From: an uncultured virus (IMG/VR IMGVR_UViG_3300014911_000629)
Taxonomy: Duplodnaviria > Heunggongvirae > Uroviricota > Caudoviricetes
Reading direction: 5' to 3' (one strand)
IMG/VR virus record: IMGVR_UViG_3300014911_000629
DNA length: 64,000 bases
Below, piece after piece: positions 5,466-59,040 of the stretch. Position 1 is the stretch's first letter, and every line of letters starts with the position of its first letter. Under the pieces are notes generated by a model. The model was not told the DNA's origin. It saw only the letters and a program-made list of their open reading frames with translations, and did not search any database. Position numbers and translations under genes: made by a program.

Positions 5466-5798
5466 TTACAAAGAAATAATAAGCCAAATGTAGTCATTCA
5501 GGAAGTCAATCATAGTTAAAACAACAAGCAAGGCACAGGCATACTTTGATGCTTTAAGCCATGCATCTCTATCTTTTTTAATTTTCTCTGGAAAATAAAT
5601 CAGTATTAAATAAAATAAAAACCATATGAATATTGAAAACATTAATGCTATTGGAATACCATGAGAAAACATTTTAGCCATTGCTGGATTTCCCTCTATT
5701 GCTCCCTTTTCAAATAGATAAACGGTTATTCCGAATGCTAACATATTGATGGTAAATGCAAGAGCAAACAATAATTTTCTTTCATCCATACCCATCAC
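5466..5798 (-). CDS. DUF5658-like membrane protein
   Basis: GAIEGNPAM motif with TM helices. Confidence 0.55.
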   Translation of the reverse strand: MMGMDERKLLFALAFTINMLAFGITVYLFEKGAIEGNPAMAKMFSHGIPIALMFSIFIWFLFYLILIYFPEKIKKDRDAWLKASKYACALLVVLTMIDFLNDYIWLIISL

Positions 5799-16524: not shown

Positions 16525-16861
16525 ATATGAGTAATATGATTGGAATTAACCAGAGAAGCAATGGCGAGTTGTATTTACCAGCAAGGGTAAATGATAAGAC
16601 AAGTGATGATAGGAATAAAAATATTGATGAAATTGTTACGGCAGGCATAACGTATTTTCTTTTGTTATAATAAACTGATGTTATTGTTGCAAGAACAGTT
16701 GATGCAGTTGTTAAATAGAGTATCCAGAATGCAGGAGTTAAAATCCCTTCCGAAGTATATATTGCATACTTTACATATTCAACTACTGACAACACAAATA
16801 GAATAATCATTAGTATTGTATCTCCAAACAGTGCAACATTCTTTATTTCTTCCTTTTCCAT
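16487..16861 (-). CDS. Membrane protein
   Basis: Four hydrophobic helices; in operon. Confidence 0.65.
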   Translation of the reverse strand: MEKEEIKNVALFGDTILMIILFVLSVVEYVKYAIYTSEGILTPAFWILYLTTASTVLATITSVYYNKRKYVMPAVTISSIFLFLSSLVLSFTLAGKYNSPLLLWLIPIILLIYVLFRAYSYSRD

Positions 16862-18708
16862 AATGCACCACCACTACCTTCAAATAGTCCAATATGACCC
16901 CACTCTGGGTAGAATACTATGCCAACTCCTATGAATATGCTTGCAAATGCTATTGCTGTATATACTTTTGTTGGAGTTATCTTTCCTATTATCTGTGATG
17001 CTTCTACTCCATCAACAAATCCATAGCCAGTTTTGTAGTCAAATCCTGCTGGAGGTATGTCATTTGCACTCTCTTTCAATGCTCTGTAAAAATCTGTTGG
17101 CTGTAAATCTTTATGCTTTGTTGCCAAATCTGCAAGTATTCCAGATGTCGATGGACATGAGAATGATGTTCCTGAAACAAACTTTAAACTTCCATCATAA
17201 TCAAATGTAGCAACATTTACTCCAACATTGGTAACATCTGGCTTTTTATGACCATCAGGTGTCGGACCTTCTGAACTAAAGTATGCTGGAACTAAATCCT
17301 TATCAACAGCACCTACTCCAAGCACATATTGGGCGGAGGCAGGTGAGGATATATGGTATCCCAAATGTGCTTCATTACCAGCAGATGCAACAACTGGTAT
17401 TCCATATCGCACTGCTAAATTATTTGCACCTGCTGATGTAGGTGCTGGATTAGACCATGTATCTCCAATCAATTCTGCTGGAACTCCAAATGAGCATGAT
17501 GCTATGACAAAATATTCTGGATGCTCCTGCTTGAACTGTGCTACCTTTTCATAACCCCAAAGAATATCGCTGTCATAAGCAACAGTGTCGCCATCGCTAT
17601 CAACAAAGAAAACTTCAACATCTATCAAATACACATCTGGTGCTACTCCTTTGTATTCTGGATGCTGACTTGCTATGCATGATGCTACAAGAGTTCCATG
17701 ATTTACATCATATTTTGGACTTATTATGTAATCCCCATATTTTTCATATGAGGCAATCACAACACTGCTTCCATTCCTCTGCAACCATTGCATATCCTCA
17801 TTTATACCACTGTCTATTATTGCAACAACAACTCCCTTTCCAGTATATCCATGAGACCAAAGCCAATCAGTGTTAAGTAACCTGTTGCAATCATCGAGAC
17901 AATGAACATTATTAATATCGCCCATGTATAATTTTACTTTATTGTTTGGATATATTGCTCTAACATATGGATGGCTTGCAAGTTCCCTTAATTTAGAACC
18001 ATCTATTTTTACGTGCAAGCCATTAAATGTATAATAATATTGATTTTCAACAAATCCACCAAGAGAAATAACATCCTGTATAACCATATTTTGCTGTTCA
18101 AGAGCATATGTGCCAACTGGTGCAGTTAGTTCAACAATAAAATCCTTTTCTCCATAGAGGTTATTAAGTTTTATTTTTTGCATGGGGTCTATGTTGCATT
18201 CTGGATAACCAAACATCTCTATTGACAGGGTTTCATATGTGCTTTGTGCGTATCCAGATAGATATGCAAATGAGAAAAATCCAAGCACTGCTATGATAAT
18301 GCCGATAACTCTGTAAGGAAGTTTTTTCTTTGAAAATTCACCGAATATTTTGTTGGCATATGGAGAAACCATCAGGACGATTATTGTTATACCTATTATT
18401 GTTCCAATAGGTATATCCAAAAGTTTTGGCACTGCCAGAAGTATAGCACCAATTCTTGATAGATGAAGTCGTGCAAGCAACCCAAAGCCAACAAGTATTG
18501 AAGAAACCGCTATAATTGCATTCAATATGAGGACGTATGTGTTTGATGGATAATAACCGAATAATGAAGTCAATGTAGGTTCATAGAATATCTCGCCTAT
18601 TATATACAGGGCAAGGATTACTGACATTACGATACCATCAACTAAATAAAAGAGAGCGATGAAGTTAGTGATTTTCTCAAATAATTCTTTTGTATCCATG
18701 TAAATCAC
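16843..18708 (-). CDS. Polytopic membrane S8 protease with I9-like propeptide
   Basis: N-terminal TMs; TFNGLHV...HPYVRAIYPN propeptide; triad AIIDSG, NHGT, SGTSFS; C-terminal TM. Confidence 0.9.
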   Translation of the reverse strand: MIYMDTKELFEKITNFIALFYLVDGIVMSVILALYIIGEIFYEPTLTSLFGYYPSNTYVLILNAIIAVSSILVGFGLLARLHLSRIGAILLAVPKLLDIPIGTIIGITIIVLMVSPYANKIFGEFSKKKLPYRVIGIIIAVLGFFSFAYLSGYAQSTYETLSIEMFGYPECNIDPMQKIKLNNLYGEKDFIVELTAPVGTYALEQQNMVIQDVISLGGFVENQYYYTFNGLHVKIDGSKLRELASHPYVRAIYPNNKVKLYMGDINNVHCLDDCNRLLNTDWLWSHGYTGKGVVVAIIDSGINEDMQWLQRNGSSVVIASYEKYGDYIISPKYDVNHGTLVASCIASQHPEYKGVAPDVYLIDVEVFFVDSDGDTVAYDSDILWGYEKVAQFKQEHPEYFVIASCSFGVPAELIGDTWSNPAPTSAGANNLAVRYGIPVVASAGNEAHLGYHISSPASAQYVLGVGAVDKDLVPAYFSSEGPTPDGHKKPDVTNVGVNVATFDYDGSLKFVSGTSFSCPSTSGILADLATKHKDLQPTDFYRALKESANDIPPAGFDYKTGYGFVDGVEASQIIGKITPTKVYTAIAFASIFIGVGIVFYPEWGHIGLFEGSGGALWKRKK

Positions 18709-30516: not shown

Positions 30517-32013
30517 ATGAGAGAAAGGATAGCAACTGTTATCATAATGGTAGTTCTGTTAGCATGTATAAATGCTTCTGCAATAGAGGTAAATCCTCCT
30601 ATTCTTGAAATAGAAGGAGAAAGTGGAGATTTTGTGTTGCAGAGCATAGAGATATATAATGATAGAGATACGGAAACGGTTGTAAATATAACGGTTGCAG
30701 GCATCAGTAACTATTATCTTCCAAAAAGCACATATGTTTTAAAACCATATGAACGCAAGACAATAACGATAGGATTTACAATTTCTGGCAGTGCTAATGG
30801 TTTTATAACGTATGAATATAATGGAGAGGTTCTGACACAGATAGTGAGCATAAACGCAGAGAAGAATGTCATAATATTTCCACAAAATCCAAAGGCAGGG
30901 ACATCAATTGCTATAATAACAACATCAGATGAGAAGGCGAATGGATTTTTATTTGTAAGCGAGACAGGAAGGCAGTATCCTGTGATATTGAGTGGTATGC
31001 CCATAACCTTTGTAAATATAAGTAAGGATGATTATGGGAGTGCCATGATAGTATTGATATGGGAGGATAAAGAAGTAACATATCATTATATAAACATAAC
31101 AAAGGCGAAGGAGACAGAGGAGAAAAAGTTGGCAATTGACTTTGGTGGAGATAAAACAATAAAGTATGGTTCTACAAGGATTATAACTTTAAAATATGGA
31201 GATGAGCCAGTTGATGGTAGTTTCATAATAGTAAAGCCAGATGGTAGTCAGATATTGAAAGATGCTAATGCACTTGGACAGATAACAGTAACGTTTAATC
31301 AAGCAGGGCAATGGACATTTATAGCGAATTATAAAGATGCAACAGTATCAGATGCAGTAACGGTTAAGAAGGGTTCTATATCTGTGAGTGTTCCAGATAA
31401 AGTTTATGTTGGTGAAGAAATAGAAATAGAGGTTTCAGAAGATAAGGGGAATTTCACAATAGTAACACCTAAAGATGAATATATAGATGGCGAGTTTAGA
31501 CATGGAGTAATAAAATTTACACCAGATGAAGCAGGAGAATATGAAATAACAATAAATTGCGAGGGTGCTGAAGAAACAGATACATTTAGAGCATACCATG
31601 AACCAAAAATTGTATTAAAGAAAGGATTTCTTGAAGTATATCCTTCTGAAATAAAATCTGGAGAAACATATGATGTATATGTTGTTGATGCCAATACTGG
31701 AGAGGTCATAGATGGAGTTCAGTATATAAGCGTAGTTCATGAAGGAGTGCAGGAATACATAACTCTCGTAAATGGTGTTGGAAAATTTACTCCAAAATCA
31801 GGATATTACACGTTTTCAATAAGTAGAGATGATAAAAATTTCATAGATGCATACTCCACATATATAACAGTGTATGGTAGCGGAGGCGGAGGCATAAAAG
31901 GTTCTACTATAATTATAATAGTGGCAATAATTGTTATATTGCTTGTGCTTGCATACTTATATAAGAAAGGAATAATTAGTTTTCCAAGCAAGCCACCGAC
32001 ACTTGAAAGGTGA
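30517..32013 (+). CDS. Membrane-anchored multi-Ig surface protein
   Basis: Signal peptide, repeated FNQAGQW/FTPDEAGEY beta modules, C-terminal TM. Confidence 0.75.
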   Translation: MRERIATVIIMVVLLACINASAIEVNPPILEIEGESGDFVLQSIEIYNDRDTETVVNITVAGISNYYLPKSTYVLKPYERKTITIGFTISGSANGFITYEYNGEVLTQIVSINAEKNVIIFPQNPKAGTSIAIITTSDEKANGFLFVSETGRQYPVILSGMPITFVNISKDDYGSAMIVLIWEDKEVTYHYINITKAKETEEKKLAIDFGGDKTIKYGSTRIITLKYGDEPVDGSFIIVKPDGSQILKDANALGQITVTFNQAGQWTFIANYKDATVSDAVTVKKGSISVSVPDKVYVGEEIEIEVSEDKGNFTIVTPKDEYIDGEFRHGVIKFTPDEAGEYEITINCEGAEETDTFRAYHEPKIVLKKGFLEVYPSEIKSGETYDVYVVDANTGEVIDGVQYISVVHEGVQEYITLVNGVGKFTPKSGYYTFSISRDDKNFIDAYSTYITVYGSGGGGIKGSTIIIIVAIIVILLVLAYLYKKGIISFPSKPPTLER

Positions 32014-33953: not shown

Positions 33954-34025
33954 AACGTAAATTTTACAAAATTTGAAAACTTTTCAAAATTTGGAAAATT
34001 ATTAATAAATCTGACTATTGTGTAA

Positions 34026-34502
34026 ATGGTGAGTATGATGAGTAAGAAAAATAAATATATACTAATAGGAGTTGTTATAGTTCTGCTTTTGGGTGTTACC
34101 AGAATAATTCAACCGACTACTAATGCAGAATTGTATGGAGGAACTCCATCATACGAAGATAATAGAGTAATGGAATTTGGATATGGAGAACCTGTGTATT
34201 TGAATACATCGTGCTTTTTCTTTCACATTATACCAATATCAATATATTGCTCTGGACCAGTTCTTATAGAAATAAGCAAATGGAATGGCTCTGATTGGGA
34301 AATAATTGTCTATCCTCCCATAACATTATGTTCTACATTTAAGTTTTATATAAATCAAAAAACTACATATTGTTTAAATGACCTACTCGAAAATTCTACT
34401 GGTTATAGAGAATTTCCAATAGGATATTACAAAGTATCAACAACAATTGCAGGAAATGAATATATCCATTACTTTATAGTTACAGAGCCAATTCTCCCAT
34501 AA
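34026..34502 (+). CDS. Exported protein with single Ig-like domain
   Basis: N-terminal TM/signal; PIGYYKV. Confidence 0.6.
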   Translation: MVSMMSKKNKYILIGVVIVLLLGVTRIIQPTTNAELYGGTPSYEDNRVMEFGYGEPVYLNTSCFFFHIIPISIYCSGPVLIEISKWNGSDWEIIVYPPITLCSTFKFYINQKTTYCLNDLLENSTGYREFPIGYYKVSTTIAGNEYIHYFIVTEPILP

Positions 34503-34506
34503 TAAA

Positions 34507-34581
34507 TAGCGGGGGGCGGATTTGAACCGCCGTTCTTCGGGTAATGAACCCGACGGGTTATCCTGACTACCCTACCCCGCT
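34507..34581 (-). tRNA. Initiator tRNA-Met (CAT)
   Basis: AGCGGGG acceptor with A1-U72, D-arm GGGT/ACCC, anticodon stem TCGGG/CCCGA (three G-C pairs), loop TTCATTA, T-loop TTCAAAT; CCA not encoded. Confidence 0.93.
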
Positions 34582-34582
34582 A

Positions 34583-35560
34583 TCAACATCCTACAATTTT
34601 CAAATTCCTGAAAGTTCTCTCATATTTATGTTCTGCTATACACAAACTATCTATATCAAGAACACGCTCCGCAAATAACCTTCTCCCGACAGGACAGGTT
34701 ATGCTATCAGGCGACAGGCGACACCCACCACGACATGCTGATTTTCTTATACAATACCTGCATTCTGGCTTTATATTCACATAGTTTCTATGATATTCCA
34801 AACCTTTTTCAACAAAATATTCATAGTCATGGTCATAGACATTGCCAAAAACTGTTTCTCTCAACCACTGGCATGGATTTACATTTCCGTTTTCATCAAC
34901 ATGCAATCTATACCTGCCTGCCTGACATGTGCTTTTTTTATAACCGCAGAACTGCCAGAATTGTGGAGAATATATGCTAACGTTATCATATTTAACTGCC
35001 CACTTAAATAAATTCAATTGAAACTTAATATCAAAGGGTTCTCTAATGCCAAGAAGCGGAAAATACATGACACCTATTCCAAATTCATCCGCTATTTTTT
35101 TCACTGGCGATATATCTTTCTTATTGTCATTGCTTATAGTCATCCTTATCCATACTGATTTTATATTACCCTTGTTTTTTTCCTCTGCAAGATATTTGAT
35201 AACTTCAACGGTTTTCTTCCACATACCTTTGCCCCTATAATAATCATGAAATTCCTCCATACCATCCAAACTCACAGCATAGTGGATGTTATCTCCAGTT
35301 ATAAGACGCTCTGGATGTTTATATAAAATTATGCCATTTGTGTATATCGTTATTGACCTGTTGCCAAACAAATCAACTATTTTATCCAAATCCTTTCTGA
35401 TAAATGGCTCACCTCCAAGTATTCCAACACTCGATACATCAAATGTTGTTGCTACCTTTTCGATTGCTTCCATAGGTATGCTACTCTTAAATAACTTATC
35501 AACGAGGCAGTGTCGGCAGTTTAAATTGCAGGCGTTGGTTACTGATAGAACTAACTGCAT
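34583..35560 (-). CDS. Radical SAM protein with SPASM domain
   Basis: CNLNCRHC, GGEP, TNG, SLDG; CQAG...G.V.PC...CRYC....CRGGC. Confidence 0.92.
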   Translation of the reverse strand: MQLVLSVTNACNLNCRHCLVDKLFKSSIPMEAIEKVATTFDVSSVGILGGEPFIRKDLDKIVDLFGNRSITIYTNGIILYKHPERLITGDNIHYAVSLDGMEEFHDYYRGKGMWKKTVEVIKYLAEEKNKGNIKSVWIRMTISNDNKKDISPVKKIADEFGIGVMYFPLLGIREPFDIKFQLNLFKWAVKYDNVSIYSPQFWQFCGYKKSTCQAGRYRLHVDENGNVNPCQWLRETVFGNVYDHDYEYFVEKGLEYHRNYVNIKPECRYCIRKSACRGGCRLSPDSITCPVGRRLFAERVLDIDSLCIAEHKYERTFRNLKIVGC

Positions 35561-35562
35561 AA

Positions 35563-35826
35563 TTATTCTACTGGTTCTTCCTCGACCATCGGTTCTTCTC
35601 TTTCCTCATGAACTGCTCTCCTCTTTTTTATAACTTTAAGAGGAGGTTCTCTGAAAACTTTAGAGCCATCTGGTCTTTCTTCTTCTTCAACAACGCATCC
35701 AACTCCTTCGACGAATTTTCCTTTTAAAATTACCTCACATTCATCTTTAGTCATCAAGTCATCCTTAATTATAGTAGTCCCCTTATGCAAATTTTCCTCA
35801 TCTTCCTTATTTTTTCTAAACACCAT
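35563..35826 (-). CDS. Two-Cys miniprotein 3
   Basis: KDECEVILKGKFVEGVGCVV; start MVFRK after GGTGAG. Confidence 0.7.
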   Translation of the reverse strand: MVFRKNKEDEENLHKGTTIIKDDLMTKDECEVILKGKFVEGVGCVVEEEERPDGSKVFREPPLKVIKKRRAVHEEREEPMVEEEPVE

Positions 35827-35827
35827 A

Positions 35828-35989
35828 CTACTCACCCTCCTTACCTACATATTCTTCTTCACCATCCCCATTTATTTTTACCTTATATCGGCATATGCCT
35901 GTTTTGAAATCATACTCACCGCTAATCGCAAGGCATGAAATCAAGTCCATTTTTTCTTCTCTAATCTCAACTTTTACTGGCGTTGCCAT
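35828..35989 (-). CDS. Two-Cys miniprotein 2 (53 aa, not in ORF track)
   Basis: MATPVKVEIREEKMDLISCLAISGEYDFKTGICRYKVKINGDGEEEYVGKEGE; fills the gap between its neighbours. Confidence 0.75.
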   Translation of the reverse strand: MATPVKVEIREEKMDLISCLAISGEYDFKTGICRYKVKINGDGEEEYVGKEGE

Positions 35990-35990
35990 A

Positions 35991-36167
35991 CTAATCCTTC
36001 AACTCGTCTTCTTCAAGAGGTTCAATGCTGACTTTCTTTGGCATGCTCTCATCAACTATTATCTTTACTTTGCATCTGCCGTCTTTATCAACTGTTCCAC
36101 CCATGAGGCGACATACCTCTGGGTCTAAATTTTCTATCTTTACTGGATTTTTATACACTTTCGCCAT
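35991..36167 (-). CDS. Two-Cys miniprotein 1 (58 aa)
   Basis: MAKVYKNPVKIENLDPEVCRLMGGTVDKDGRCKVKI...; GGGGTGA SD. Confidence 0.75.
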   Translation of the reverse strand: MAKVYKNPVKIENLDPEVCRLMGGTVDKDGRCKVKIIVDESMPKKVSIEPLEEDELKD

Positions 36168-36181
36168 ATTTATCACCCCTT

Positions 36182-36916
36182 TCAACTATTAACTGGAGGA
36201 GGACTTTTAAACTTTACCCTATCTCCTTCAATCTTTACACATCCAATTGATACAAGATAATTCAGATAGTTCTCAAACATTGCATCTCCTCTAATCCATT
36301 TCCTCGCATCTATGAACTCATATTTTAGTTCGCTTATAGGAACGCCAGCACCGCCTGCCTCCTCAATGTATTTCATCATGTGATAAACAATCGGTTCATA
36401 GCCCCTAACGAACTCATACATCTTGTCAAATGTTGTTACTGATATTCCGATAGTATATCTTTCAATTTTTATTATCTTTCCTACCTTCTCCTGCTCAACT
36501 GCAAGATAACCAAACCTTTCCATCTCATCAATGATTTTATCTATGTATTTCCTTGCCCATCTTGTGTCTGGTAAAACACGCAAATCATAAATCAATGCAT
36601 TTTTTATACCATCTCTTGTTAGTTTTCTCTCTGCCACAACACGCTGAATTAATTGATAATAGACGTCAGCACCAGCACATATTTTGTCTTCAGGTATTTC
36701 TTCTTCAAAGTATATAACAGTTCCACCGTGATGCATCTTCTTTGTAACAATCATCTGGTTTGGATATTCGGCATCCAAGCCAAGAGTTACAGTATATGGA
36801 AGTCGTATCGTAACACCAGAGCGTCTAACGTGTGTTTCCCTTCCAGAGTAACCTTTAACCCCCTGTGCAAATTCCGACATTGTTATTCCTTTTCTTGGAA
36901 CTACCTTCTTCTTCAT
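36182..36916 (-). CDS. Winged-helix-like protein
   Basis: IIDEMERFGYL and YLNYLVSIGCVKIEGDRVK wHTH-like segments. Confidence 0.6.
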   Translation of the reverse strand: MKKKVVPRKGITMSEFAQGVKGYSGRETHVRRSGVTIRLPYTVTLGLDAEYPNQMIVTKKMHHGGTVIYFEEEIPEDKICAGADVYYQLIQRVVAERKLTRDGIKNALIYDLRVLPDTRWARKYIDKIIDEMERFGYLAVEQEKVGKIIKIERYTIGISVTTFDKMYEFVRGYEPIVYHMMKYIEEAGGAGVPISELKYEFIDARKWIRGDAMFENYLNYLVSIGCVKIEGDRVKFKSPPPVNS

Positions 36917-37311
36917 ATTACCACTGGCTTATACATATACCTTTCAAACTCCGATATTAACTTTCTTGAAAGTGTGGCAATCCTTTCCTCTATTGTTTTT
37001 GTAACTACGCCAGTGTATTTTCTTTCAAGTGCTACGATGTGTGGTATTCCTCTTTCAAATCCTTCTTTCCAGAATACAAGTATTGGAACTACTCTATCTC
37101 CAAGTTTTTCATCACAGAATGTTCGCCACCACATATATTTGGCATCCCTCCTTACTGATACATTGACCCTGTCTATCGGTATAGTAGTTCTTAAATCAAG
37201 TTCATCAACTATTCTAACAAATCTTCTGCATATTGGACATTCATATTTATAGTAATACACGAACTCTGGTGTCTGCAACTCTTCCTGCAAATCTAAAACT
37301 ATATGCCTCAT
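36913..37311 (-). CDS. Thioredoxin/glutaredoxin-like protein
   Basis: YYYKYECPIC active-site-like motif; VVPILVF cis-Pro-like strand. Confidence 0.7.
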   Translation of the reverse strand: MRHIVLDLQEELQTPEFVYYYKYECPICRRFVRIVDELDLRTTIPIDRVNVSVRRDAKYMWWRTFCDEKLGDRVVPILVFWKEGFERGIPHIVALERKYTGVVTKTIEERIATLSRKLISEFERYMYKPVVI

Positions 37312-38210
37312 GCTATCTCCGCCAGATTTTCGGCAACTTCCTCCTCCTTCTTCTTAACTTCCTTCTTAAATTCCTTTGCCTCTTTTTCAGCACCAGTTAA
37401 TGCATTCTTTATGTTATCTAACTCTGTTTTTATCATCTCAAGTTCTCCCTTTAGTTCATTATCCTTATCTGTCTTTATTCTGCTTACCAGTGATGCTATC
37501 TTCATTGTTTTTTCAAGCACTTCAATTGTAAGTTTGTATGGCTCTTTGCCCTGCTCCGTAGAAATCTTTATCAACGTATTTACCAACTCGCTTACCTGCT
37601 CCTTCATTGCCACAACTATTGCATGCTCTGCCTGCTGTTTTGCTCTTATTCTCTCAATCTCTCCTTCTATTGATACAAGTTTTGCAGACAAAGTCCTCAA
37701 CTGTCTCTGTAAAGAATTAACAAGTTCTTCTGCATGCTGTGCCTTTAATCTTTCAACCTCAAGCGAATGTTCAATCTCCTGCCTATTGTTGTCAAGTTCC
37801 GTCAATGACAATTCAAGTTCTCTTATGTATTCCTTCAATTCACTTATTGGCTTTGCCTCCTCTGGAGGTAACCATCTCATAAGATTTATTTCATCATCCT
37901 TGTGTGTTTTTGCTGTCAATACAACGATGCCTCCAAGTTCATGATAAACTGGCTCGAACTGTTGCGATTTCTCATTGTATATCATGAGAGGTTCTTCAAC
38001 TATGTCTCTTTCTGGAGTAACTACTATCGCAACCTCCTTTCTTTTTCCGCTACTTTCCTCTGTAACCCACTTCCTATCAATTATTACTCCTCCAAACTTT
38101 CCATTACCTCGTATCAAATATTGAAATGCATTTTTCATCATATATTTTGCATTCTTCAATAACTGAATACCATTATCAGCCCTACCATTATATTTATATT
38201 TCTCATACAT
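37308..38210 (-). CDS. Beta-domain plus long coiled-coil protein
   Basis: Heptad-rich C-terminal ~170 aa. Confidence 0.7.
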   Translation of the reverse strand: MYEKYKYNGRADNGIQLLKNAKYMMKNAFQYLIRGNGKFGGVIIDRKWVTEESSGKRKEVAIVVTPERDIVEEPLMIYNEKSQQFEPVYHELGGIVVLTAKTHKDDEINLMRWLPPEEAKPISELKEYIRELELSLTELDNNRQEIEHSLEVERLKAQHAEELVNSLQRQLRTLSAKLVSIEGEIERIRAKQQAEHAIVVAMKEQVSELVNTLIKISTEQGKEPYKLTIEVLEKTMKIASLVSRIKTDKDNELKGELEMIKTELDNIKNALTGAEKEAKEFKKEVKKKEEEVAENLAEIA

Positions 38211-38586
38211 CTTCTTTCACCCTTTTACCAAGATGGGCAATATTAATTATTTCTACAACACGCTTATCTTTAGCATTTGTAAGGAAGAAACCCACAAAGT
38301 TGTTATTTTTCCTGTCATCAATGCCAAGTTCTTCCCTGACTTTCTTTGTTATTGTGCATCTTTGCCTACCATCTACCTTGACAGCATCTATTTCTTTTCC
38401 AACAACTTTACTATGAGCGTTATTAACAACAATCTTAACATCTCCATTAACCTGCAATTTTGAATATACTATTATTTCGGGGTGTCCAAGTAATTTCATA
38501 AGGTCATCTGAAAGATAAACTCTGTTTTTATCTTTAACCTTTCTTATATCAATGGGTATGTAATCACTGCTTTCATAATCATTCAT
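38203..38586 (-). CDS. Tandem AbrB/SpoVT (MraZ-like) DNA-binding protein
   Basis: RKVKDKNRVYLSDDLMKLLG and VKVDGRQRCTITKKVREELGI. Confidence 0.7.
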   Translation of the reverse strand: MNDYESSDYIPIDIRKVKDKNRVYLSDDLMKLLGHPEIIVYSKLQVNGDVKIVVNNAHSKVVGKEIDAVKVDGRQRCTITKKVREELGIDDRKNNNFVGFFLTNAKDKRVVEIINIAHLGKRVKEDV

Positions 38587-38644: not shown

Positions 38645-38666
38645 AATTATTTTGAAATTTAGACAT

Positions 38667-39257
38667 ATGAACATAGATGAAAGATTTAAGGATTTATGCG
38701 AAGATTTTGATGGAACAGTAATAGATGAAAATGGAATGTTAGTATGCGAATTGAGGGATTGGGATTATTTTAAATCATTTTCAACATGGATGAAAAAGAA
38801 GATACCACGAAAGAAGATTAAAAAAGAGTATGTGGCAAAATTTAAATCTTATGGAGTTATCCCAGAAACAGAGGCAGAGTTTATAATAGGTGTTACTGGA
38901 GATATGGAGGCAAAAGTAAGTGCAATTGACATTGTTTCACATGAGGCAATTTTAGACGGATTGGAGGAAGAAGCAAAAGAAAAGGGAATTGAGAATGTTG
39001 AAGATGTAATAGATAGAGCAATTGAAGAATGGGAAAACAAATATCCAAAGAATGTAAAGCCATCAAAATACCAATTCGTAGGTGAAATTACTATTGATGT
39101 TGATTTTGATAGTGTTTATGATAATTGGGAACTTTCGGCGACGGCAAGAAAGAAAGTATTGGAAGGAGAAGAATTGAACCATACATTAAATGCTATGGAT
39201 GAGGAAGTAACCCGTGCTGTTGAAAACATTGAATATCCTCATATTGAAGGTGATTAA
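38667..39257 (+). CDS. Acidic protein with N-terminal two-Cys motif
   Basis: DLCEDFDGTVIDENGMLVCEL; start set by promoter spacing. Confidence 0.7.
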   Translation: MNIDERFKDLCEDFDGTVIDENGMLVCELRDWDYFKSFSTWMKKKIPRKKIKKEYVAKFKSYGVIPETEAEFIIGVTGDMEAKVSAIDIVSHEAILDGLEEEAKEKGIENVEDVIDRAIEEWENKYPKNVKPSKYQFVGEITIDVDFDSVYDNWELSATARKKVLEGEELNHTLNAMDEEVTRAVENIEYPHIEGD

Positions 39258-39796: not shown

Positions 39797-40942
39797 ATGG
39801 ATATTGTTAAGATTTGTAAGAGTTATAGGTCAATGCTTGAGAGATATGGTTTTAGTGCAGAAACGATATATTACTATCCAATTGAACTTGGAAAATTTTT
39901 GGAATTTGTGAAAAGCAGGGGTAAGAATAAGATAGAGGATATAGATGAAGTTGATTATATCCTTTATAGAAATAAACTTGAGGATGAAGGATATAGCAAA
40001 AAAATGGTAATCAAAAAAATGTCAGCAGTGAAAACATGGATTAGATTGAACTATGAAAGAAATCCAACAGATGAACATTTTGCAAGGTTACATGAAAAGG
40101 TAAATACGGTAAGAATGACTTTATCCAAAAAGGGCTATAATGGAGGATATAAGCCAATACCACTTGAGCATTTTTTACAGATTTTAAAAACAGCATCCAT
40201 AATGGATTTAGAGACAAAATTGTTTATTTACATTCTTGCCACAACAGGGGGGCGTAGTCAGTTCTATGGTTTGAAATTAGGAAATATTGATTTGGACAAT
40301 AGATTGATAAAGGTATTTGTAAAAGGAGAGAAATACATTGAAGTTCCAATAATAGACATGGTTACCAAACTGATTATAGAGCATATAAAGATGAAATACT
40401 TAAAGGAATATAACGAAATAAAAGAGAAGTTGGAAAAGAATGGAGAAAAAGTTGATGATGAATATATAGTGAAAAAATATCTTATAAAAAGGCACTCTAA
40501 CGAATTTTTATTCAAGTATGGTAAGGATGTATATTCTGAAAACTTATCATGGGATAGGATAAAGAAAAATAGAAGGGCTAACACGAAGAATGCGGAAAGG
40601 ATTTTGAGGAGGGTATGCGATTATGCTGGCTTGTGGGTATGCAAGAATTGTGGTAAGGTGGGCAGTGGAAAATCAGAAAACAATAGTGTGAGATGTGATG
40701 TATGCAACAAAAAGGTTGAATTTGTATATTACACGCCACACCAGATACGCAAGGCGATAGCAACTCATGGACATAAATTAGGATTGTCTCTTGAAGGGAC
40801 ATCTGACTTGCTTGGACATTCAAATATTGATATAACAAAGAGGTTCTATCGTGGTAAGCAGATACAAAAAGTGAGAGAAGAATTGAAGGGCATAGGAGAA
40901 TTGTTAAACAAAATAGAGGAGGAAAGGTTCAATACAAGTTAG
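39797..40942 (+). CDS. Tyrosine recombinase/integrase with zinc-ribbon insertion
   Basis: TTGGR (R), VKG (K), HQIR, LLGHS, TKRFY (Y); CKNC...CDVC insert. Confidence 0.9.
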   Translation: MDIVKICKSYRSMLERYGFSAETIYYYPIELGKFLEFVKSRGKNKIEDIDEVDYILYRNKLEDEGYSKKMVIKKMSAVKTWIRLNYERNPTDEHFARLHEKVNTVRMTLSKKGYNGGYKPIPLEHFLQILKTASIMDLETKLFIYILATTGGRSQFYGLKLGNIDLDNRLIKVFVKGEKYIEVPIIDMVTKLIIEHIKMKYLKEYNEIKEKLEKNGEKVDDEYIVKKYLIKRHSNEFLFKYGKDVYSENLSWDRIKKNRRANTKNAERILRRVCDYAGLWVCKNCGKVGSGKSENNSVRCDVCNKKVEFVYYTPHQIRKAIATHGHKLGLSLEGTSDLLGHSNIDITKRFYRGKQIQKVREELKGIGELLNKIEEERFNTS

Positions 40943-42291: not shown

Positions 42292-42630
42292 GTGAAAAAA
42301 ATTTGTGTGAATGTAAAAATGGGGGAAATAGATAAGGTGATATATGAAGCAAAAAAGGGCGAATGGCAGTTAGTGAAAAGAGGCAAAAAATATCTCTATT
42401 TTAGGAAGGGCTTTATCACTGCAAAGATAGACAAAAAGAGATATGAAAACTTCAATGAGGAAAATATTATCTTTGAAATTTGGATTACAGTGATAGAGGA
42501 GTTTATGCATTCCACATATCTATACTGTAAAGGAAAAAAAGAAATTTGTAGAGGAGCATTGGATAAAATAAAGAAAGAATATGGAAATGATAAAGATATA
42601 AAGTTAGAAATAAAGGGGGTGGCTATATGA
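42289..42630 (+). CDS. Hypothetical protein
   Basis: Start set by cassette. Confidence 0.65.
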   Translation: MVKKICVNVKMGEIDKVIYEAKKGEWQLVKRGKKYLYFRKGFITAKIDKKRYENFNEENIIFEIWITVIEEFMHSTYLYCKGKKEICRGALDKIKKEYGNDKDIKLEIKGVAI

Positions 42631-43787
42631 AAAAGGTAATAGTGGAAAGGGTTTATGAGGAAATAAGGAAGCATGGAAGCGAAGGAGCGAAAGCGAAGGA
42701 TATAGCAAAAGCCACTGGCTTTTGCATGGCAACAGTATATAAGGCAGTAAAGGAGTTAATCATGGAAGGAAAGGTTAGAGAAGAAATAGATGGAAGGACC
42801 TCAATCTTTATTGCACAAAATTTACAAAATTCATGTAATGTAATACAGCCACAGCCACAGGCAGTTATACCACAGCCACAGCAAGCCATAACCCCACAGC
42901 CACAGGCAATAACAGGAGGGCTAAAATTCACTGGAGGAGTAAATGAAATTGCTTATGATATGGAAGATTATAAGGTTGAAAAGGATAAGGATTATGTGCA
43001 TAGATTTTTCAATGGCATAAAGGATTTTGAATTACTGGATAAGGCAAAGGAAAACGGGCAAAATGTTTTACTTGTCGGACCGAAGGGAAGCGGTAAAACA
43101 TACATGATTAAAAACTGGTGTGCGGAGCGTGGTTATCCTTATGCAAGAATAAACATGGATGGAGCGATAACCACAGAAGATTTTATTGGCTCATGGGTTA
43201 GAGTTGGAAATGAATGGGTATGGAGCGATGGTATTCTCACAAGATTTATGAGGCATGGAGGAGTTTTAGTTATAGATGAAATAAATGCATCTCCTCCTGA
43301 AATGCTCTTTATACTTCATAGTGTATTAGATGATGGAAGGCAAATAGTATTGAGAAGCAAGGATGGTGAAATTGTAAAGGCACACAAGGATTTTATGCTG
43401 ATTGCATGCATGAACCCTGACTATGCAGGCACACAGGAGTTAAATGAGGCGTTAGAAGATAGATTTGATATAATACTATATGTTGATTATGATGAAAACT
43501 TGGAGGCAAAGTTAATCAAAAATGAGAAATTGATAGATTTTGCAAAGAGAATAAGGTTTATGTATAATGAAAGGAAGTTGCATAAAACAATATCCACAAG
43601 GACATTGATACAATTTGAGAAAAACATAGAATTGTATGGCTATGAGATAGCGAGGCATATATTGTTAAACAAATTTGATTATGAGGACAGGCAGGCAGTA
43701 GGCGAAGCACTGGATATGGTATTGAATAAGAGGAGCGAGGAGGAAGCAATAGAGGAGGAAAACAATATTGAGGAGGGAGGAATATGA
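42627..43787 (+). CDS. MoxR-family AAA+ ATPase (CbbQ/NorQ/CobS-like) with N-terminal wHTH
   Basis: GPKGSGKT, VLVIDEIN, ACMNPDYAGT, LNEALEDRF; QPQ linker. Confidence 0.88.
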   Translation: MKKVIVERVYEEIRKHGSEGAKAKDIAKATGFCMATVYKAVKELIMEGKVREEIDGRTSIFIAQNLQNSCNVIQPQPQAVIPQPQQAITPQPQAITGGLKFTGGVNEIAYDMEDYKVEKDKDYVHRFFNGIKDFELLDKAKENGQNVLLVGPKGSGKTYMIKNWCAERGYPYARINMDGAITTEDFIGSWVRVGNEWVWSDGILTRFMRHGGVLVIDEINASPPEMLFILHSVLDDGRQIVLRSKDGEIVKAHKDFMLIACMNPDYAGTQELNEALEDRFDIILYVDYDENLEAKLIKNEKLIDFAKRIRFMYNERKLHKTISTRTLIQFEKNIELYGYEIARHILLNKFDYEDRQAVGEALDMVLNKRSEEEAIEEENNIEEGGI

Positions 43788-45751
43788 GGGAGGAGATAAG
43801 AATAAGAGGGGCAGTAATACAGGCATTTTTAGAGAAGTTGGATTGCATATTATCCATGAAGTTGTTAAGAGTAAAAAATTACGATAGTGCTTGCACTGAT
43901 GGAAGGGTAATATTCCTTCCTATCGAGTATTACAAAGAACAAGCAAGTAATATGAAAGATTATCTTTTGATGATTAAAGGGCTTAATTATCATGAATTGG
44001 CTCATGTATTATTCACAACATACACAAAGAGACAAGTAAAGAAATTCTGTGATGATTTTGATATTGCTTATTACCATTTCTTTGATGTGTTAAACATGCT
44101 GGAAGATATGAGAATTGAGAATTACATAGTTAAAGTATATCCAAAGTGCAAGCCATATCTCATTTACATTAATACAGTGATAATAAAAAGAGCATTAAAG
44201 AAAGCCACAGGAAAGTTAAATCTAAAGTATGAACGGATGGAAAACTTATGGTTGCCACAGATTGGCAAGGTATATTTACCAAAAAGGTTTAGAATGGCTT
44301 TGTTGAAGCAGACAAATACTTTTGATAAGGATACAACCAAAAAGATAATAGACATTGTCAATAGATATATCAATCTGGCAAGGGAATATGGAAAGAAATT
44401 GAAATATAAGAAATACAGGAAGGAATATGAATTAAAATCTCTTTCAATAGCAAAGGAATTATATGATATACTTGCGGAGCATGATAATAATGTTGCTATG
44501 CCAACATTTACTCCTTATGAGGATGTGGGAGATGCAGTAAAGGAATACAGGCAAGATATGGATGAAAAGGTATTAAGAGTTATTGATGTTGATTTTGGCG
44601 ATATAGATGAAGATGATATTGAGGAAATGGAGGAGGAAGGAGAAGAAGATAAAGATATTGATGGAAATGCTGGTAATGGTGAAGATAAAGAGGAAGAAAT
44701 AGAGGAGGAAGGAGAAGGCAGTAATGGAGATAAGGAGGAAGAAGGCGATATTGAAGAAGTGGAGGAAGAAATAGGAGATAGTGAGGAAGATAGCGAAGGT
44801 AATGAGGAAGATGACAAGGAAGATATTAAGGCAAGTGGAGGAAGCAGTAAGGATAACAAATTAGAGGATAGTGAAAACAGCAAGGCAGGAGATAAAGGCA
44901 GTGAAAAGGATGAGGAAGATGAAAGAAAGGAGTTAAATAAAATAATTGAGGAAATGGAAAAAATGCAGGAGGAAATAAAAGAGGATGTTGAAGGAGAAAT
45001 ACAACAGGATTATGAGTTAATATTAGAGATAGATAAAGAGTTGCTCACAGCAGAAGAAGATAGAGCAAGGGAGGAAGTAGAGAAGATATTAAGCAAAGTT
45101 GTAAATGAGTATAAGGCACACTGGGTAATGAGGCAAAAAGAAGGAAGGGTTAATATCAGACATGCTATGAAAAGTGAGCATAACGGAGATACAAGAATAT
45201 TTAAGAAATTCAAAGCAAGCAAAATGAATGAGTTAGAGTTTAGAATATTCTTAAATGTAGATACAAGTGGAAGCATGCATGGTGAAAAGATTTTGGCAGT
45301 TAGAAGCATGGCAAAAGTGATTTTGAGGGCTTTTGAGAAAACAAAGAGTAAAGTAAAAGTTGTTGGATTTAGCAATAGTGCGGAGTTATACAAGGATTGG
45401 GAGGATAAACATATACCATACCTATCTGCGGGAGGAGGAACATGGGCATCTCTTTCATTAAGAAATATTGTAAGAGAAGTTAAAGAACTAAAGAGGAAAT
45501 ACAATAAACCAGTGTTGGTAATAACAATTACTGATGGATGGTGGCATTCGGAGGAAGAAGCGGAAAAACTAATAAGAGAATTGAATAAAATGGATGTAAT
45601 AACAGTTGAGATAAATATAGAAGTTGAGCGTTATCATGGAAGTGAGTATTGTTATTTCATAAAGAGCGTTAGTGAGTTGCCAAAGATAATGAGGGATTTA
45701 ACTGATAAATTAGCAAGGAAGTTGATAAAAAGGAGACAATACCTTATCTAA
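43784..45751 (+). CDS. VWA protein with N-terminal HExxH domain and acidic linker (CobT-like architecture)
   Basis: ACTDG, HELAH, LEDMRIE; Asp/Glu-rich linker; MIDAS DTSGS, GGT, ITDG. Confidence 0.85.
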   Translation: MREEIRIRGAVIQAFLEKLDCILSMKLLRVKNYDSACTDGRVIFLPIEYYKEQASNMKDYLLMIKGLNYHELAHVLFTTYTKRQVKKFCDDFDIAYYHFFDVLNMLEDMRIENYIVKVYPKCKPYLIYINTVIIKRALKKATGKLNLKYERMENLWLPQIGKVYLPKRFRMALLKQTNTFDKDTTKKIIDIVNRYINLAREYGKKLKYKKYRKEYELKSLSIAKELYDILAEHDNNVAMPTFTPYEDVGDAVKEYRQDMDEKVLRVIDVDFGDIDEDDIEEMEEEGEEDKDIDGNAGNGEDKEEEIEEEGEGSNGDKEEEGDIEEVEEEIGDSEEDSEGNEEDDKEDIKASGGSSKDNKLEDSENSKAGDKGSEKDEEDERKELNKIIEEMEKMQEEIKEDVEGEIQQDYELILEIDKELLTAEEDRAREEVEKILSKVVNEYKAHWVMRQKEGRVNIRHAMKSEHNGDTRIFKKFKASKMNELEFRIFLNVDTSGSMHGEKILAVRSMAKVILRAFEKTKSKVKVVGFSNSAELYKDWEDKHIPYLSAGGGTWASLSLRNIVREVKELKRKYNKPVLVITITDGWWHSEEEAEKLIRELNKMDVITVEINIEVERYHGSEYCYFIKSVSELPKIMRDLTDKLARKLIKRRQYLI

Positions 45752-52455: not shown

Positions 52456-52859
52456 AGTTTGTATATACATTGGGAGGGAAAAGAGAATTTTTCTTGCTCC
52501 TTGAAAAATTGAGACAGGCAGGCAAAATCTGTGTAAAGAACCTATATGAATTGAAAACAGAATTTGAACAAAAAAGAGGATGGAAATACAGAACAATTGT
52601 GGAAAGGCATATCTATCTTGCAGAAGTATGTTCATATTTGGGTTTTGCACCAAGAAATTTAGCACCACATGAGAAGCAAGAAGAAATAAAGAAGTATGGT
52701 TGGTGTCCTGAATTTGAGGCAAGATGTAGTGCATCTGAAAATAAAGAAATGAAACCTGAAATATGTAAAAAAATATGGAAGGGAGAACCGCATCGCAACC
52801 TTGCTATCATATATTTTGAAGATAGAATAAGAAAAGAACCTTTATATGAGGAGGGATGA
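52452..52859 (+). CDS. Hypothetical protein
   Basis: TTGA overlap; WCPE...C...C. Confidence 0.6.
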   Translation: MKFVYTLGGKREFFLLLEKLRQAGKICVKNLYELKTEFEQKRGWKYRTIVERHIYLAEVCSYLGFAPRNLAPHEKQEEIKKYGWCPEFEARCSASENKEMKPEICKKIWKGEPHRNLAIIYFEDRIRKEPLYEEG

Positions 52860-53992
52860 AAATGAATGAGTTAGTAAAAAAGGTAAATAGGATAAGAGAT
52901 GAATTAAACGGATACTTCCTTGAAAGGAAGGAAGAAATAGACATAATGATAACAGCAATACTATCTAAAAAGCATGTATATCTGCTTGGAGAGGCAGGCA
53001 CAGGAAAAAGTATGTTGTGCAGGGCAGTGGCAGGGCATATTGAAGGGGCTAAATATTTTGATTGGCTCTTGACAAAATTCACTACGCCAGATGAAATCTT
53101 CGGTCCGCCTAACATTAAGGCATTGGAGGAAGGAAGATATGAGCGAGTAATTGAAGGAAAATTACCAACAGTGCATATTGCCTTCCTTGATGAAATCTTT
53201 AAGGCAAATAGTAGCATCCTCAATTCTTTACTCAAAATCATCAATGAGCGTTTGTTTGATAATGATGCAAAACCGATAGCAGTGCCATTAATTTCTCTTT
53301 TCACAGCAAGCAATGAACTTCCAGATACCGATGAGAACCTGTCAGCATTATATGATAGATTACACTTGAGGAAGTTAGTTAAACCAATCAGCGATATTGA
53401 TAATGAAAGAAGATTGTTAAAACTTGAGGATAAATATGAACCAAAAACAAAGATAACCCTTGATGAACTTGAAAAACTGCATACACTTGTAAAGCGTGTT
53501 GATATTGATTATGTTATTGATGATGCTATAAAGATTTTTAGAGCAGTAAGAGAGAAAGGAGTATTTGTGAGCGATAGGAGAAAGAAGGAGAGCATGGACA
53601 TTGTCAGGGCTTATGCATTGATGAACGGCAAAACGAAGGCAGATATAGATGATTTGGAAATATTACAGTATGTGCTTTGGAATGAACCACAGGAAATCCA
53701 GAATGTGGCATCCACAGTGCTACAAATTAGCAATCCATTTGAAGAAAAAGCAAGGGAACTTATGGCAATGCTTGATGACTTGGAGAAGAAGATAGAAAAA
53801 TATGAGCAGTTAGAACCTGATGTTTATGAAATCTATCAAAAGTTGGTTGCACTTGAAAAAGATACAAGCAAACTCATTGAAACAGCAAACAGGATAAAGA
53901 AGAATGCAAAATCACTGGAAGAAGTGCATGAAAGAATAAAGTATATGATAAAGAAGATGAGAAAAGATTTTTGGGGAATTGAGGGGGGATGA
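52856..53992 (+). CDS. RavA-like MoxR AAA+ ATPase
   Basis: GEAGTGKS, LLTKFTTPDEIFGP, AFLDEIFKANSSILNSLL, ASNELP, ALYDR, SDRR. Confidence 0.9.
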   Translation: MKMNELVKKVNRIRDELNGYFLERKEEIDIMITAILSKKHVYLLGEAGTGKSMLCRAVAGHIEGAKYFDWLLTKFTTPDEIFGPPNIKALEEGRYERVIEGKLPTVHIAFLDEIFKANSSILNSLLKIINERLFDNDAKPIAVPLISLFTASNELPDTDENLSALYDRLHLRKLVKPISDIDNERRLLKLEDKYEPKTKITLDELEKLHTLVKRVDIDYVIDDAIKIFRAVREKGVFVSDRRKKESMDIVRAYALMNGKTKADIDDLEILQYVLWNEPQEIQNVASTVLQISNPFEEKARELMAMLDDLEKKIEKYEQLEPDVYEIYQKLVALEKDTSKLIETANRIKKNAKSLEEVHERIKYMIKKMRKDFWGIEGG

Positions 53993-58545: not shown

Positions 58546-59040
58546 GTGTGCATATTGTGTGATGTAAGATATTTTCTAACTGTGCATGATACTGCCATTT
58601 ATTTACAGATATTCGCAAATAAGAAGGAAGGAGAAGGAGTATGGGAGAAAAAACCAAAAAACAGAAAGGAGTTTGATAAGAAAATAACTACAATTACGAA
58701 AGAATTGAATGATGCACCTAACATGGCAACAACATACGAGTTTCTTATGAGAGTTGTAAAGAGTTTTGCAAAGAAGTATGATGATGACCTGTTATCCATT
58801 GCACTTGTATATCTTGATATATTGTGTATAATGAATGGAAGGGATAGAGAGCCGATTGATAAAAAATGGATAGAGAAGATGCAAAGAAAGATGAGAAAAC
58901 TAAAATTCACGGAAAGTGAAAAATGTTATTTTGTCATCAATGCACTAATCCATGATTTCAACAATTTTCATGAGTGGTTTAACAGCGGAAAGAGGAGTGG
59001 AAAGGAGCATGAGAAGGCATACATAAATTACATAGGGTGA
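58546..59040 (+). CDS. Hypothetical protein
   Basis: In operon. Confidence 0.6.
   Translation: MCILCDVRYFLTVHDTAIYLQIFANKKEGEGVWEKKPKNRKEFDKKITTITKELNDAPNMATTYEFLMRVVKSFAKKYDDDLLSIALVYLDILCIMNGRDREPIDKKWIEKMQRKMRKLKFTESEKCYFVINALIHDFNNFHEWFNSGKRSGKEHEKAYINYIG

Follow-up and report, generated by a model that had tools for sequence, protein, structure and literature searches.

IMG/VR record IMGVR_UViG_3300014911_000629, assigned to an uncultured virus of the Caudoviricetes, is a stretch of 64,000 nucleotides (nt), which we refer to as the window. Its minus strand carries, from position 38586 down to 34506, a densely arranged row of genes whose neighbours overlap by 4-8 nt or lie 1-2 nt apart (Table 1). 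Toward its end stand three miniprotein genes (miniA, miniB and miniC), followed by the gene of a radical S-adenosylmethionine (SAM)/SPASM enzyme; 2 nt separate the stop codon of miniC from the enzyme's start, and a tRNA-Met gene begins directly after the enzyme's stop codon. A sequence-only reading of this DNA had placed a thioredoxin-like gene with a CPIC motif, three two-cysteine miniproteins, a radical SAM/SPASM gene and a tRNA here, and each was found where it had been put.

A radical SAM/SPASM enzyme behind three two-cysteine miniproteins

The enzyme belongs to the radical SAM superfamily and to its SPASM subfamily. As had been claimed, it is a full protein of this type, matching both Pfam families above their cut-offs: Radical_SAM (PF04055) at E 2.2e-16 (60.9 bits against 29.5) and SPASM (PF13186) at E 3.3e-5 (24.5 bits against 21.5). 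The motif of the radical SAM cluster reads C11-x3-C15-x2-C18, and the GGEP motif (G49, G50, E51 and P52) was invariant in 16/16 sequences. SPASM domains carry a seven-cysteine motif, CX9-15GX4C ... CX2CX5CX3C ... C; here it takes the form C212-x12-G225-x4-C230, C267-x2-C270-x5-C276-x3-C280 and C289, again invariant in all 16, and C205 is nearly invariant. A database search grouped the enzyme in a tight clade with 15 homologues (E <= 5e-50, 37-96% identity), and the bulk of SPASM enzymes, mostly named mycofactocin maturase, began at E 1e-19. No curated NCBIfam family was reached, the best scores being 63-69 bits against cut-offs of 265-650. The best of these sub-threshold matches were NirJ1 at the top (E 3.1e-19, 68.9 bits against 650), WgkB (67.4 against 650), StsB (66.3 against 625), MftC, the tungsten-cofactor maturase and PapB (62.8 against 340); GggB scored 50.2 against 650. 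Against the anti-phage defence models of PADLOC, the proteins of the operon gave, coiled-coil noise aside, only a generic likeness of the radical SAM core to pVip (E 3.3e-10, residues 5-125).

The best solved relatives by sequence were SkfB (E 1.6e-19), CteB (2e-15) and anSME (7.4e-13). The radical SAM core starts at residue 3-4 of the enzyme and aligns from residue 112 of SkfB and residue 99 of CteB; the enzyme therefore lacks an N-terminal recognition domain, the recognition element (RRE) of systems for peptides that are ribosomally made and modified post-translationally (RiPPs). No longer, fused homologue was found at E <= 1e-15, a negative result of little weight. The terminal residue Cys325 is invariant, with 15 of the 15 close homologues ending in cysteine (...V/G-C), whereas a cysteine stands among the last three residues in only 3 of 105 other SPASM matches; two distant homologues end in ...EIC and ...LICP. 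Judging from these sequences, the C-terminal cysteine is a hallmark specific to the family.

The three two-cysteine peptides singled out by the sequence-only reading are present letter for letter in miniA, miniB and miniC. Each miniprotein has exactly two cysteines, with 12 (miniA), 13 (miniB) and 13 (miniC) residues between them, and PVK(I/V)E is common to miniA and miniB. That the three are paralogous was borne out by hhalign comparison of profiles built from their orthologue sets, which aligned all three in cysteine register (A versus B, E 2.7e-5; B versus C, E 1e-4; A versus C, E 1.3e-3). An alignment of 22 miniproteins from seven loci had only three invariant columns, Cys, Gly and Cys. 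The same three were the sole invariant columns among 54 sequences (mean column identity 20%), where Asp was the majority residue four positions before the first cysteine.

Comparative data bear on whether these small open reading frames (ORFs) are genes at all. One of the three, miniB, was said by the sequence-only reading to lack annotation, as a frame open by chance would. Across loci, however, the miniproteins are kept at 22-78% identity with the invariant Cys, Gly and Cys. The ratio of nonsynonymous to synonymous substitution rates (dN/dS) is 0.09-0.14 in comparisons of the window with L001 and of L004 with L006, with proportions of differing sites of 0.11-0.18 (nonsynonymous, pN) against 0.55-0.69 (synonymous, pS). 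The enzyme gene gave 0.06-0.17 in the corresponding comparisons, all of these ratios being approximate because dS is near saturation. Strong Shine-Dalgarno-like sequences are also present, GGGGTGAT ahead of miniA and AAGGAGGGTGA ahead of miniC, the position of the latter favouring the ATG at 35826 as the true miniC start. A profile of the 22 sequences had 59 matches at E <= 0.001 among 1.84 billion representative proteins. Of 53 that were retrieved, 49 were 48-105 amino acids (aa) long, all with the signature C-x(3-5)-G-x(6-9)-C, and the remaining four were longer proteins, three of them with repeats of the two-cysteine unit. On these comparisons of sequence, the chance-frame explanation can be regarded as already refuted, with next to no probability left to it. 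Within the 64-kb window, the same profile picked out three frames from all six-frame stretches (E 3.2e-22, 8.1e-18 and 2.8e-15; next 0.4), a scan that is partly circular in that miniA, miniB and miniC are themselves in the profile.

An AlphaFold2 model of miniA, with a predicted local distance difference test score (pLDDT) of 77.7, has the order strand-helix-strand-strand-strand, with Cys19 inside the helix and Cys32 where a strand begins. Foldseek comparison of this model with the PDB gave nothing at E <= 0.001 (best 0.65), and a wide VIA-align search of 48,161 chains reached at best Z 3.0 (4lid_B, root-mean-square deviation 4.3 over 39 residues), with none at Z >= 5, which does not by itself prove the fold to be new. 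No usable match to miniC was returned from the ESM Atlas. No Pfam family was matched by more than one of the 54 members at E <= 0.1, and NCBIfam, PHROGs and PADLOC held no family for the miniproteins.

Similar units were seen in larger proteins. P0132 (629 aa), P0159 (139 aa) and P0168 (216 aa) contain two or more tandem copies of a similar two-cysteine unit, and P0168 has a membrane-like end and a signal-like start. A two-cysteine stretch that by eye resembles the miniprotein signature also opens larger proteins (100-201 aa) of these elements (Table 1). The 100-aa protein of L044 was the only one of these to be scored by the miniprotein profile (E 2.5e-4); the 201-aa ORF at 38652-39257 received no score in the window, and its L002 counterpart only E 0.46.

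Table 1. Positions of the genes in the row, of other features of the window, and of two protein groups that recur in related loci (window positions unless a locus is named)
Feature	Position	Strand	Remarks
127-aa protein	38203..38586	-	head of the operon; weak NCBIfam match only, E 0.0043
300-aa protein, long coiled-coil C-terminal half	37308..38210	-	weak SMC/MAD-type coiled-coil matches only
Thioredoxin/glutaredoxin-like protein, 132 aa, CPIC motif	36913..37311	-	invariant C25, P26, C28, P76; sub-threshold matches
244-aa protein, predicted tandem winged-helix	36182..36916	-	AlphaFold2 model and Foldseek
miniA, 58 aa, Cys19 and Cys32	35991..36167	-	alternative TTG start at 36185
miniB, 53 aa, Cys19 and Cys33	35828..35989	-	
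miniC, 87 aa, two Cys	35563..35826	-	ATG start at 35826; alternative GTG at 35835
Radical SAM/SPASM enzyme, 325 aa	34583..35560	-	Pfam Radical_SAM and SPASM matches
tRNA-Met, anticodon CAT	34506..34582 (ARAGORN); 34507..34581 (Rfam)	-	
Cdc6/Orc1	84-1289		
HNH nuclease	1286-1987		
Subtilases with PKD domains	5795-7510; 16843-18708		
Laminin-G/PKD protein, 1614 aa	8777-13621		
Tyrosine integrase	39797-40942		
MoxR-VWA pairs (two)	42627-45751; 52856-53992 with 55068-56663		
DHH phosphoesterase	59037-59972		
Cas4-like nuclease	63132-63809		
Protein of about 500 aa, signal-like N-terminus	window 30517-32013(+); L005 8110-9624; L042 6060-7574; L043 17898-19481(-)		
Larger proteins opening with a two-Cys stretch	window 38652-39257(+); L005 74-526(-), 12780-13343(-); L013 4559-5053(-); L044 7060-7362(-)		by eye

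Linkage of the miniproteins to the enzyme in related elements

Metagenome and genome scans yielded 13 loci of the close family (L001-L013). Ten of them (L001, L002, L004, L005, L006, L007, L009, L010, L011 and L013), in which at least 150 nt are available upstream of the enzyme gene, were assessable for synteny; L003 (63 nt upstream), L008 (about 100 nt) and L012 (a fragment) were left out of the count. Several of the ten are near-duplicates, so that they amount to eight lineages, with enzyme identities of 40-99%. The sequence-only reading had pointed to homologous enzymes occurring apart from such small ORFs as an outcome that would contradict it. Miniprotein genes lay directly upstream of the enzyme gene in 10/10 of the assessable close loci, the end of the last miniprotein gene falling between a 4-nt overlap and a 21-nt gap from the enzyme start; the two distant homologues still have one at 0.9 and 4.6 kb. 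The contradicting outcome was thus not seen, and within the close clade the enzyme gene and the miniprotein genes adjoin.

The number of miniprotein genes beside the enzyme is three in L001, L002, L005, L007 and L013, four in L006 and five in L004; the contig end truncates the set in L009-L011. Copy number per element varies (1, 1, 3, 3, 3, 3, 3, 4 and 5), against a single enzyme gene. The miniproteins have also diverged further than the enzyme, standing at 22-27% identity to those of L013 where the enzymes stand at 40%. In L005 the module is split: the three miniproteins remain with the radical SAM gene, and the thioredoxin-like, winged-helix and coiled-coil genes lie 6 kb off on the opposite strand.

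Co-occurrence was examined in 401 sampled Thermoplasmatota genomes. A profile of the enzyme reached E <= 1e-40 in only three of them (G001, G269 and G218; next 2.4e-24), and the best three genomes for the miniprotein profile were the same set (E 1e-13, 4e-9 and 2.4e-4). Two further genomes gave only about 1e-3, within 298-aa frames. All three miniprotein matches of G001, the genome that holds L013, adjoin its radical SAM gene. The other two genomes hold distant elements with 28% enzyme identity (BLASTP E 9e-35). In this element family the enzyme invariably comes with the thioredoxin-like protein and with one or more miniproteins.

Proposed modification of the miniproteins and competing explanations

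The analysis establishes that the small ORFs are genes and paralogues of one another, which class the enzyme belongs to, and that enzyme and miniproteins are linked and co-occur; the enzyme-substrate relation, its chemistry and the role of the thioredoxin-like protein we infer. That the radical SAM/SPASM enzyme modifies the miniproteins at or near their Cys...Gly...Cys signature is a reading for which we find belief and doubt about evenly balanced. The 325-aa enzyme would post-translationally modify the adjacent two-cysteine miniproteins, a variable set of one to five paralogues per element, on or beside the invariant Cys...Gly...Cys. Its closest characterized relatives suggest, by analogy, that the likeliest chemistry would be a radical-made crosslink, for example a thioether from cysteine to a backbone or side-chain carbon. 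Since the enzyme lacks an RRE, it would probably recognize the small domain directly. The thioredoxin-like CPxC protein may keep or set the redox state of the cysteine pair or of the enzyme's C-terminal cysteine. The adjacency in the close clade, the split module of L005 and the complete co-occurrence argue for modification of the miniproteins, as do the copy number of 1-5 against one enzyme gene and the thioether synthases SkfB and CteB being the enzyme's nearest characterized relatives. Fast divergence of the miniproteins around three fixed residues is what a substrate shows that diversifies while its modification sites stay the same.

The sequence-only reading had named structure prediction of the enzyme-miniprotein complex as a check. 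With alignments of both partners, three 4Fe-4S clusters and SAM, the three runs scored 0.63, 0.05 and 0.56. The result, graded "weak support" at 0.56, stands above the best of three controls (0.00), and one run is at odds with it. Contacts agreed between runs to at least 73%, and the partner pLDDT was at least 55. Of 157 solved complexes, 116 reach the mark applied, as do 2 of 215 mismatched pairs; passing scores of 0.60 or less come from only 18 of the 157 and from both of the passing mismatches. The prediction also used custom alignments and riding ligands, unlike the calibration set.

Known systems offer partial parallels. As in the sactipeptide and ranthipeptide systems (SkfB-SkfA-SkfH, CteB, PapB, StsB and GggB), a radical SAM enzyme with C-terminal auxiliary clusters stands beside several small paralogous cysteine-containing genes. 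According to the available text of PMC8172795, sactipeptide clusters often include a thioredoxin, as this module includes a thioredoxin-like gene, and the SKF cluster has skfH, a putative thioredoxin. The same text gives SKF one thioether and one disulfide, and streptosactin a thioether from cysteine to the alpha-carbon of glycine. Unlike the synthases of those systems, the enzyme here lacks an N-terminal RRE and falls far below every NCBIfam cut-off. Unlike their precursors, the small proteins here are 53-87 aa long, fold in models and have only two cysteines; and unlike those systems the module is archaeal and element-borne. The sequence-only reading had proposed a RiPP-like or virion-protein crosslinking system. 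Its enzyme class, its paralogues and its archaeal mobile element held up, but a classical RiPP cluster this is not: the miniprotein domain is conserved over its full length, with no evident leader/core split, the operon has no protease or transporter, and the subtilases of the window lie 17-29 kb away. Nor was a capsid or terminase recognized that would tie the module to a virion.

An archaeal parallel is CrpC of Methanococcus voltae, a radical SAM/SPASM enzyme with three 4Fe-4S clusters that installs thioethers in the whole protein CrpA (PMC13692751, as far as its available text goes). There too an archaeal radical SAM/SPASM enzyme stands beside paralogous substrate-like genes, and the target is an adjacent protein rather than a short peptide. 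That source, however, describes a predicted RRE in CrpC and a 47-residue leader-like N-terminus shared by CrpA and CrpB, whereas the enzyme here has no RRE. CrpA is large and cysteine-rich, with ten 17-residue repeats and C-x-x-Q/D motifs (PMC13692751), whereas the miniproteins have two cysteines and no C-x-x-Q/D. TIGR04463, the CrpC family, was not among the best 25 of the enzyme's 67 NCBIfam matches. The same paper, in the text available, names QHNDH as a protein with RiPP-like modifications. Taken together, the system works most like a sactipeptide/ranthipeptide or CrpC-type system and is a member of neither.

QhpD is a radical SAM/SPASM enzyme that makes intramolecular cysteine thioethers in QhpC, a small subunit of quinohemoprotein amine dehydrogenase (QHNDH) that remains a protein; this system belongs to the periplasm of bacteria and includes a protease, an exporter and a flavoenzyme. 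Its likeness to the present module, compared by description only, lies in thioethers made in a protein subunit by a radical SAM/SPASM enzyme. The enzyme here also resembles anSME, an RRE-less radical SAM/SPASM protein of similar size that acts on a cysteine (or serine) of a protein substrate. The anSME target motif is C/S-x-P/A-x-R; unlike anSME substrates, the three miniproteins do not contain it, and Pfam scans of window ORFs of at least 100 aa found no sulfatase family. Pfam, NCBIfam, PHROGs and PADLOC do not cover the enzyme clade, the miniprotein family or their association, and the literature searched contained no description of an enzyme-miniprotein family of this kind.

Several observations weigh against modification of the miniproteins by the enzyme. 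The linkage is confounded in that every gene concerned belongs to the core set of a single element family: shared descent of the element, and not a functional partnership, may account for the co-occurrence and for a large part of the synteny. The adjacency argument is weakened by the spacing in the two distant elements. In G269 the lone miniprotein lies 0.9 kb downstream of the enzyme with two small genes between, directly preceding a 504-aa surface-type protein; in G218 a distance of 4.6 kb separates it from the enzyme, its neighbours being the winged-helix protein and a 527-aa surface-type protein, and 0.7 kb beyond the enzyme stands a 100-aa protein whose N-terminus carries a copy of the signature (E 2.5e-4). 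The predicted complex offers weak support, one of its three runs reaching only 0.05. The enzyme has no RRE, unlike the known sactipeptide and ranthipeptide synthases and CrpC. The miniproteins model as small folded domains without a visible cleavage site, and the operon encodes no exporter. A conserved cysteine pair with a helix-capping glycine fits a structural disulfide or a metal site equally, and a CPxC oxidoreductase-like protein is encoded two genes upstream. SPASM enzymes, moreover, also take non-protein substrates, for example Gms acting on lipids according to the available text of PMC11186832, and NirJ1, an example with a non-protein substrate, is the top NCBIfam match.

These points lead to a serious rival, in which the miniproteins are structural or regulatory, their cysteine pair forms a stabilizing disulfide or a cross-subunit metal site handled by the CPxC protein, and the enzyme acts on something else and is adjacent only as a core gene. 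Proteins of hyperthermophilic archaea and of their viruses commonly contain intracellular disulfides, and viruses of hyperthermophiles encode small disulfide-stabilized proteins along with thioredoxin-fold oxidoreductases. The present module has the same ingredients, small element-encoded proteins with a conserved cysteine pair and a CPxC protein nearby, whose CPxC motif and conserved proline are invariant in 6/6 homologues and whose gene accompanies the miniproteins in every element with enough visible DNA. The folded miniprotein model, with one cysteine in the helix and the other at a strand start, and the G218 miniprotein beside a winged-helix protein and far from the radical SAM gene fit this rival as well. 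The L005 split runs the other way, since the miniproteins there stay with the radical SAM gene and not with the thioredoxin-like gene. Nor do the 93 greedy non-overlapping ORFs of the window have an excess of even cysteine counts (36 even, 50 odd, 7 none), so that pervasive disulfide use is not evident, though this count is crude and its gene set includes some spurious frames. No radical SAM enzyme is needed in the disulfide proteins of hyperthermophile viruses, whereas here the enzyme gene is the one most tightly joined to the miniproteins; the rival leaves that junction to the last miniprotein, seen in 8/8 close lineages, unexplained, and does not name the alternative substrate. We hold a disulfide or metal role with a different enzyme substrate to be possible but rather unlikely.

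Two other explanations separate the miniproteins from the substrate. They might assist the enzyme as accessory proteins (small carriers of Fe-S, metal or electrons, or specificity adaptors in place of the RRE), the true substrate being another element or host molecule. The enzyme does lack an RRE, two cysteines per chain could form a bridging cluster in an oligomer, and the weak predicted interface fits a partner as well as a substrate. But one to five copies diverging faster than the enzyme would be unusual for an obligatory subunit; the predicted one-helix fold differs from the RRE/PqqD fold, which has three helices; and neither Pfam scans over the 54 members nor Foldseek or VIA-align gave a likeness to ferredoxin or rubredoxin. 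We consider this improbable. Slightly less probable still is that the enzyme acts on a non-protein substrate (a lipid, a tetrapyrrole-like cofactor or a nucleic acid such as the adjacent tRNA) and that the miniproteins are unrelated to it. NirJ1 heads the NCBIfam matches, with MoaA, HpnH and AhbC/D also among those listed, yet these matches rest on the shared radical SAM core and lie far below cut-offs. A tRNA gene abuts the enzyme gene in four loci, but not in L005, L007 or L013 nor in the available downstream DNA of L008-L011. The SPASM enzyme Gms acts on archaeal lipids, and the extra N-terminal helical domain described for it in the available text of PMC11186832 is not in this enzyme; the family-specific linkage here is to the miniproteins.

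Returning to modification of the miniproteins, a more specific form of it would be RRE-independent protein stapling encoded by the element: an intramolecular crosslink at Cys...Gly...Cys, for example a thioether from cysteine to the alpha-carbon of glycine, would yield heat-proof, diversifying miniproteins that serve as parts of a virion, a surface complex or an effector, with the thioredoxin-like protein and the C-terminal cysteine as a redox relay, in a vent Thermoplasmatota element that is possibly a virus. This full picture we offer tentatively, and hold to be doubtful as a whole.

The surrounding element

The other proteins of the row recur in related loci. The thioredoxin-like protein keeps CPxC and the downstream P76 in 6/6 homologues. 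Five of six members matched Pfam Glrx-like at E <= 0.1 (best 5.1e-5), all below the Pfam cut-off, and its best PDB matches by sequence were glutaredoxins and thioredoxins (best E 2e-4). The 244-aa protein, kept in six elements, matched no Pfam, NCBIfam or PHROG family. Its AlphaFold2 model (mean pLDDT 67.8) is low over residues 1-80 and mostly above 70 over residues 81-244, and Foldseek aligned it with tandem winged-helix proteins (TFIIIC tauB at 2.4e-4, the SelB C-terminus, ScpB and PadR); it models as an ill-defined N-terminal part followed by two predicted winged-helix domains, and might serve in DNA binding or as a recognition module. The 127-aa protein, possibly an AbrB/SpoVT-like regulator from its sequence pattern, a label backed by no significant family match, has positional counterparts at the head of the same module in L002, L007, L013, L042 and L044. 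The coiled-coil protein has counterparts of 225-309 aa in L005, L007, L013, L042 and L044.

The tRNA gene also follows the enzyme gene in L001, L002 and L003, which makes it a component of the element rather than an integration site. Besides the copy in the window, the element family's own CAT-anticodon tRNA occurs in L001 (1992-2068), L003 (1051-1125) and L013 (15404-15480); the start of the acceptor stem, AGCGGGG, is conserved and the anticodon stems vary among loci. Directly 3' of the tRNA-Met gene, 544 nt (33962-34505) are replaced by 14 nt in L002, which is otherwise 93-98% identical, and this looks like an insertion or deletion exactly at the tRNA 3' end. The segment holds a 158-aa ORF (34026-34502, plus strand) with a hydrophobic N-terminus and four cysteines. 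Near the module stands a further conserved protein of about 500 aa that has a signal-like N-terminus and, at its C-terminus, a membrane anchor (Table 1); in both distant elements its gene directly follows the miniprotein gene.

Judged by gene content, the whole window resembles a single large mobile element. Its mobile character is suggested by the integrase, Cdc6/Orc1 and the Cas4-like nuclease, and the archaeal host proposed by the sequence-only reading agrees with the related loci in metagenome-assembled genomes (MAGs) of Thermoplasmatota. The operon is best explained as belonging to the core that is conserved in an unclassified mobile element of vent-dwelling archaea of the Thermoplasmatota. 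Pfam and PHROG scans of the window recognized no capsid, terminase or other virion hallmark, and IMG/VR scans with the enzyme, the enzyme alignment and the alignment of the 244-aa protein found no relative. Negative GC skew extends from about 4 to 38 kb, and from 42 kb on the skew is strongly positive; the cumulative minimum, at 36-38 kb, coincides with the divergent region near 38.6 kb, where the coding strand changes, and could mark a replication origin or mere coding-strand bias.

The stretch or close variants of it occur in sequencing runs labelled hydrothermal vent, marine or sediment metagenome; the 20 runs listed include no RNA run, and the four compared with the module (X2, X3, X4 and X7) consist of DNA contigs. 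In a marine metagenome run (X4), contigs with several variants span all 30 bins of 34507-37311, and contigs of X7 (runs with a coded organism name) cover 17/30 bins, for the most part at 90-99% likeness; other studies therefore contain close relatives of the element as well. In runs X2 and X3 essentially only the tRNA was covered.

If the cysteine pair merely forms a disulfide, the module would be an ordinary conserved gene neighbourhood, and the substrate of an orphan SPASM enzyme would still have to be found. If the enzyme does modify the miniproteins, radical SAM crosslinking would extend from leader-guided peptides to small folded proteins recognized without an RRE, and to mobile elements or viruses of archaea. 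A substrate family set by only three invariant residues would then offer a compact scaffold from which heat-stable stapled miniproteins could be engineered. Modification of the miniproteins would also assign a function to some of the core genes conserved in an uncharted element family, which several metagenomes from vents and sediments and three Thermoplasmatota MAGs contain.

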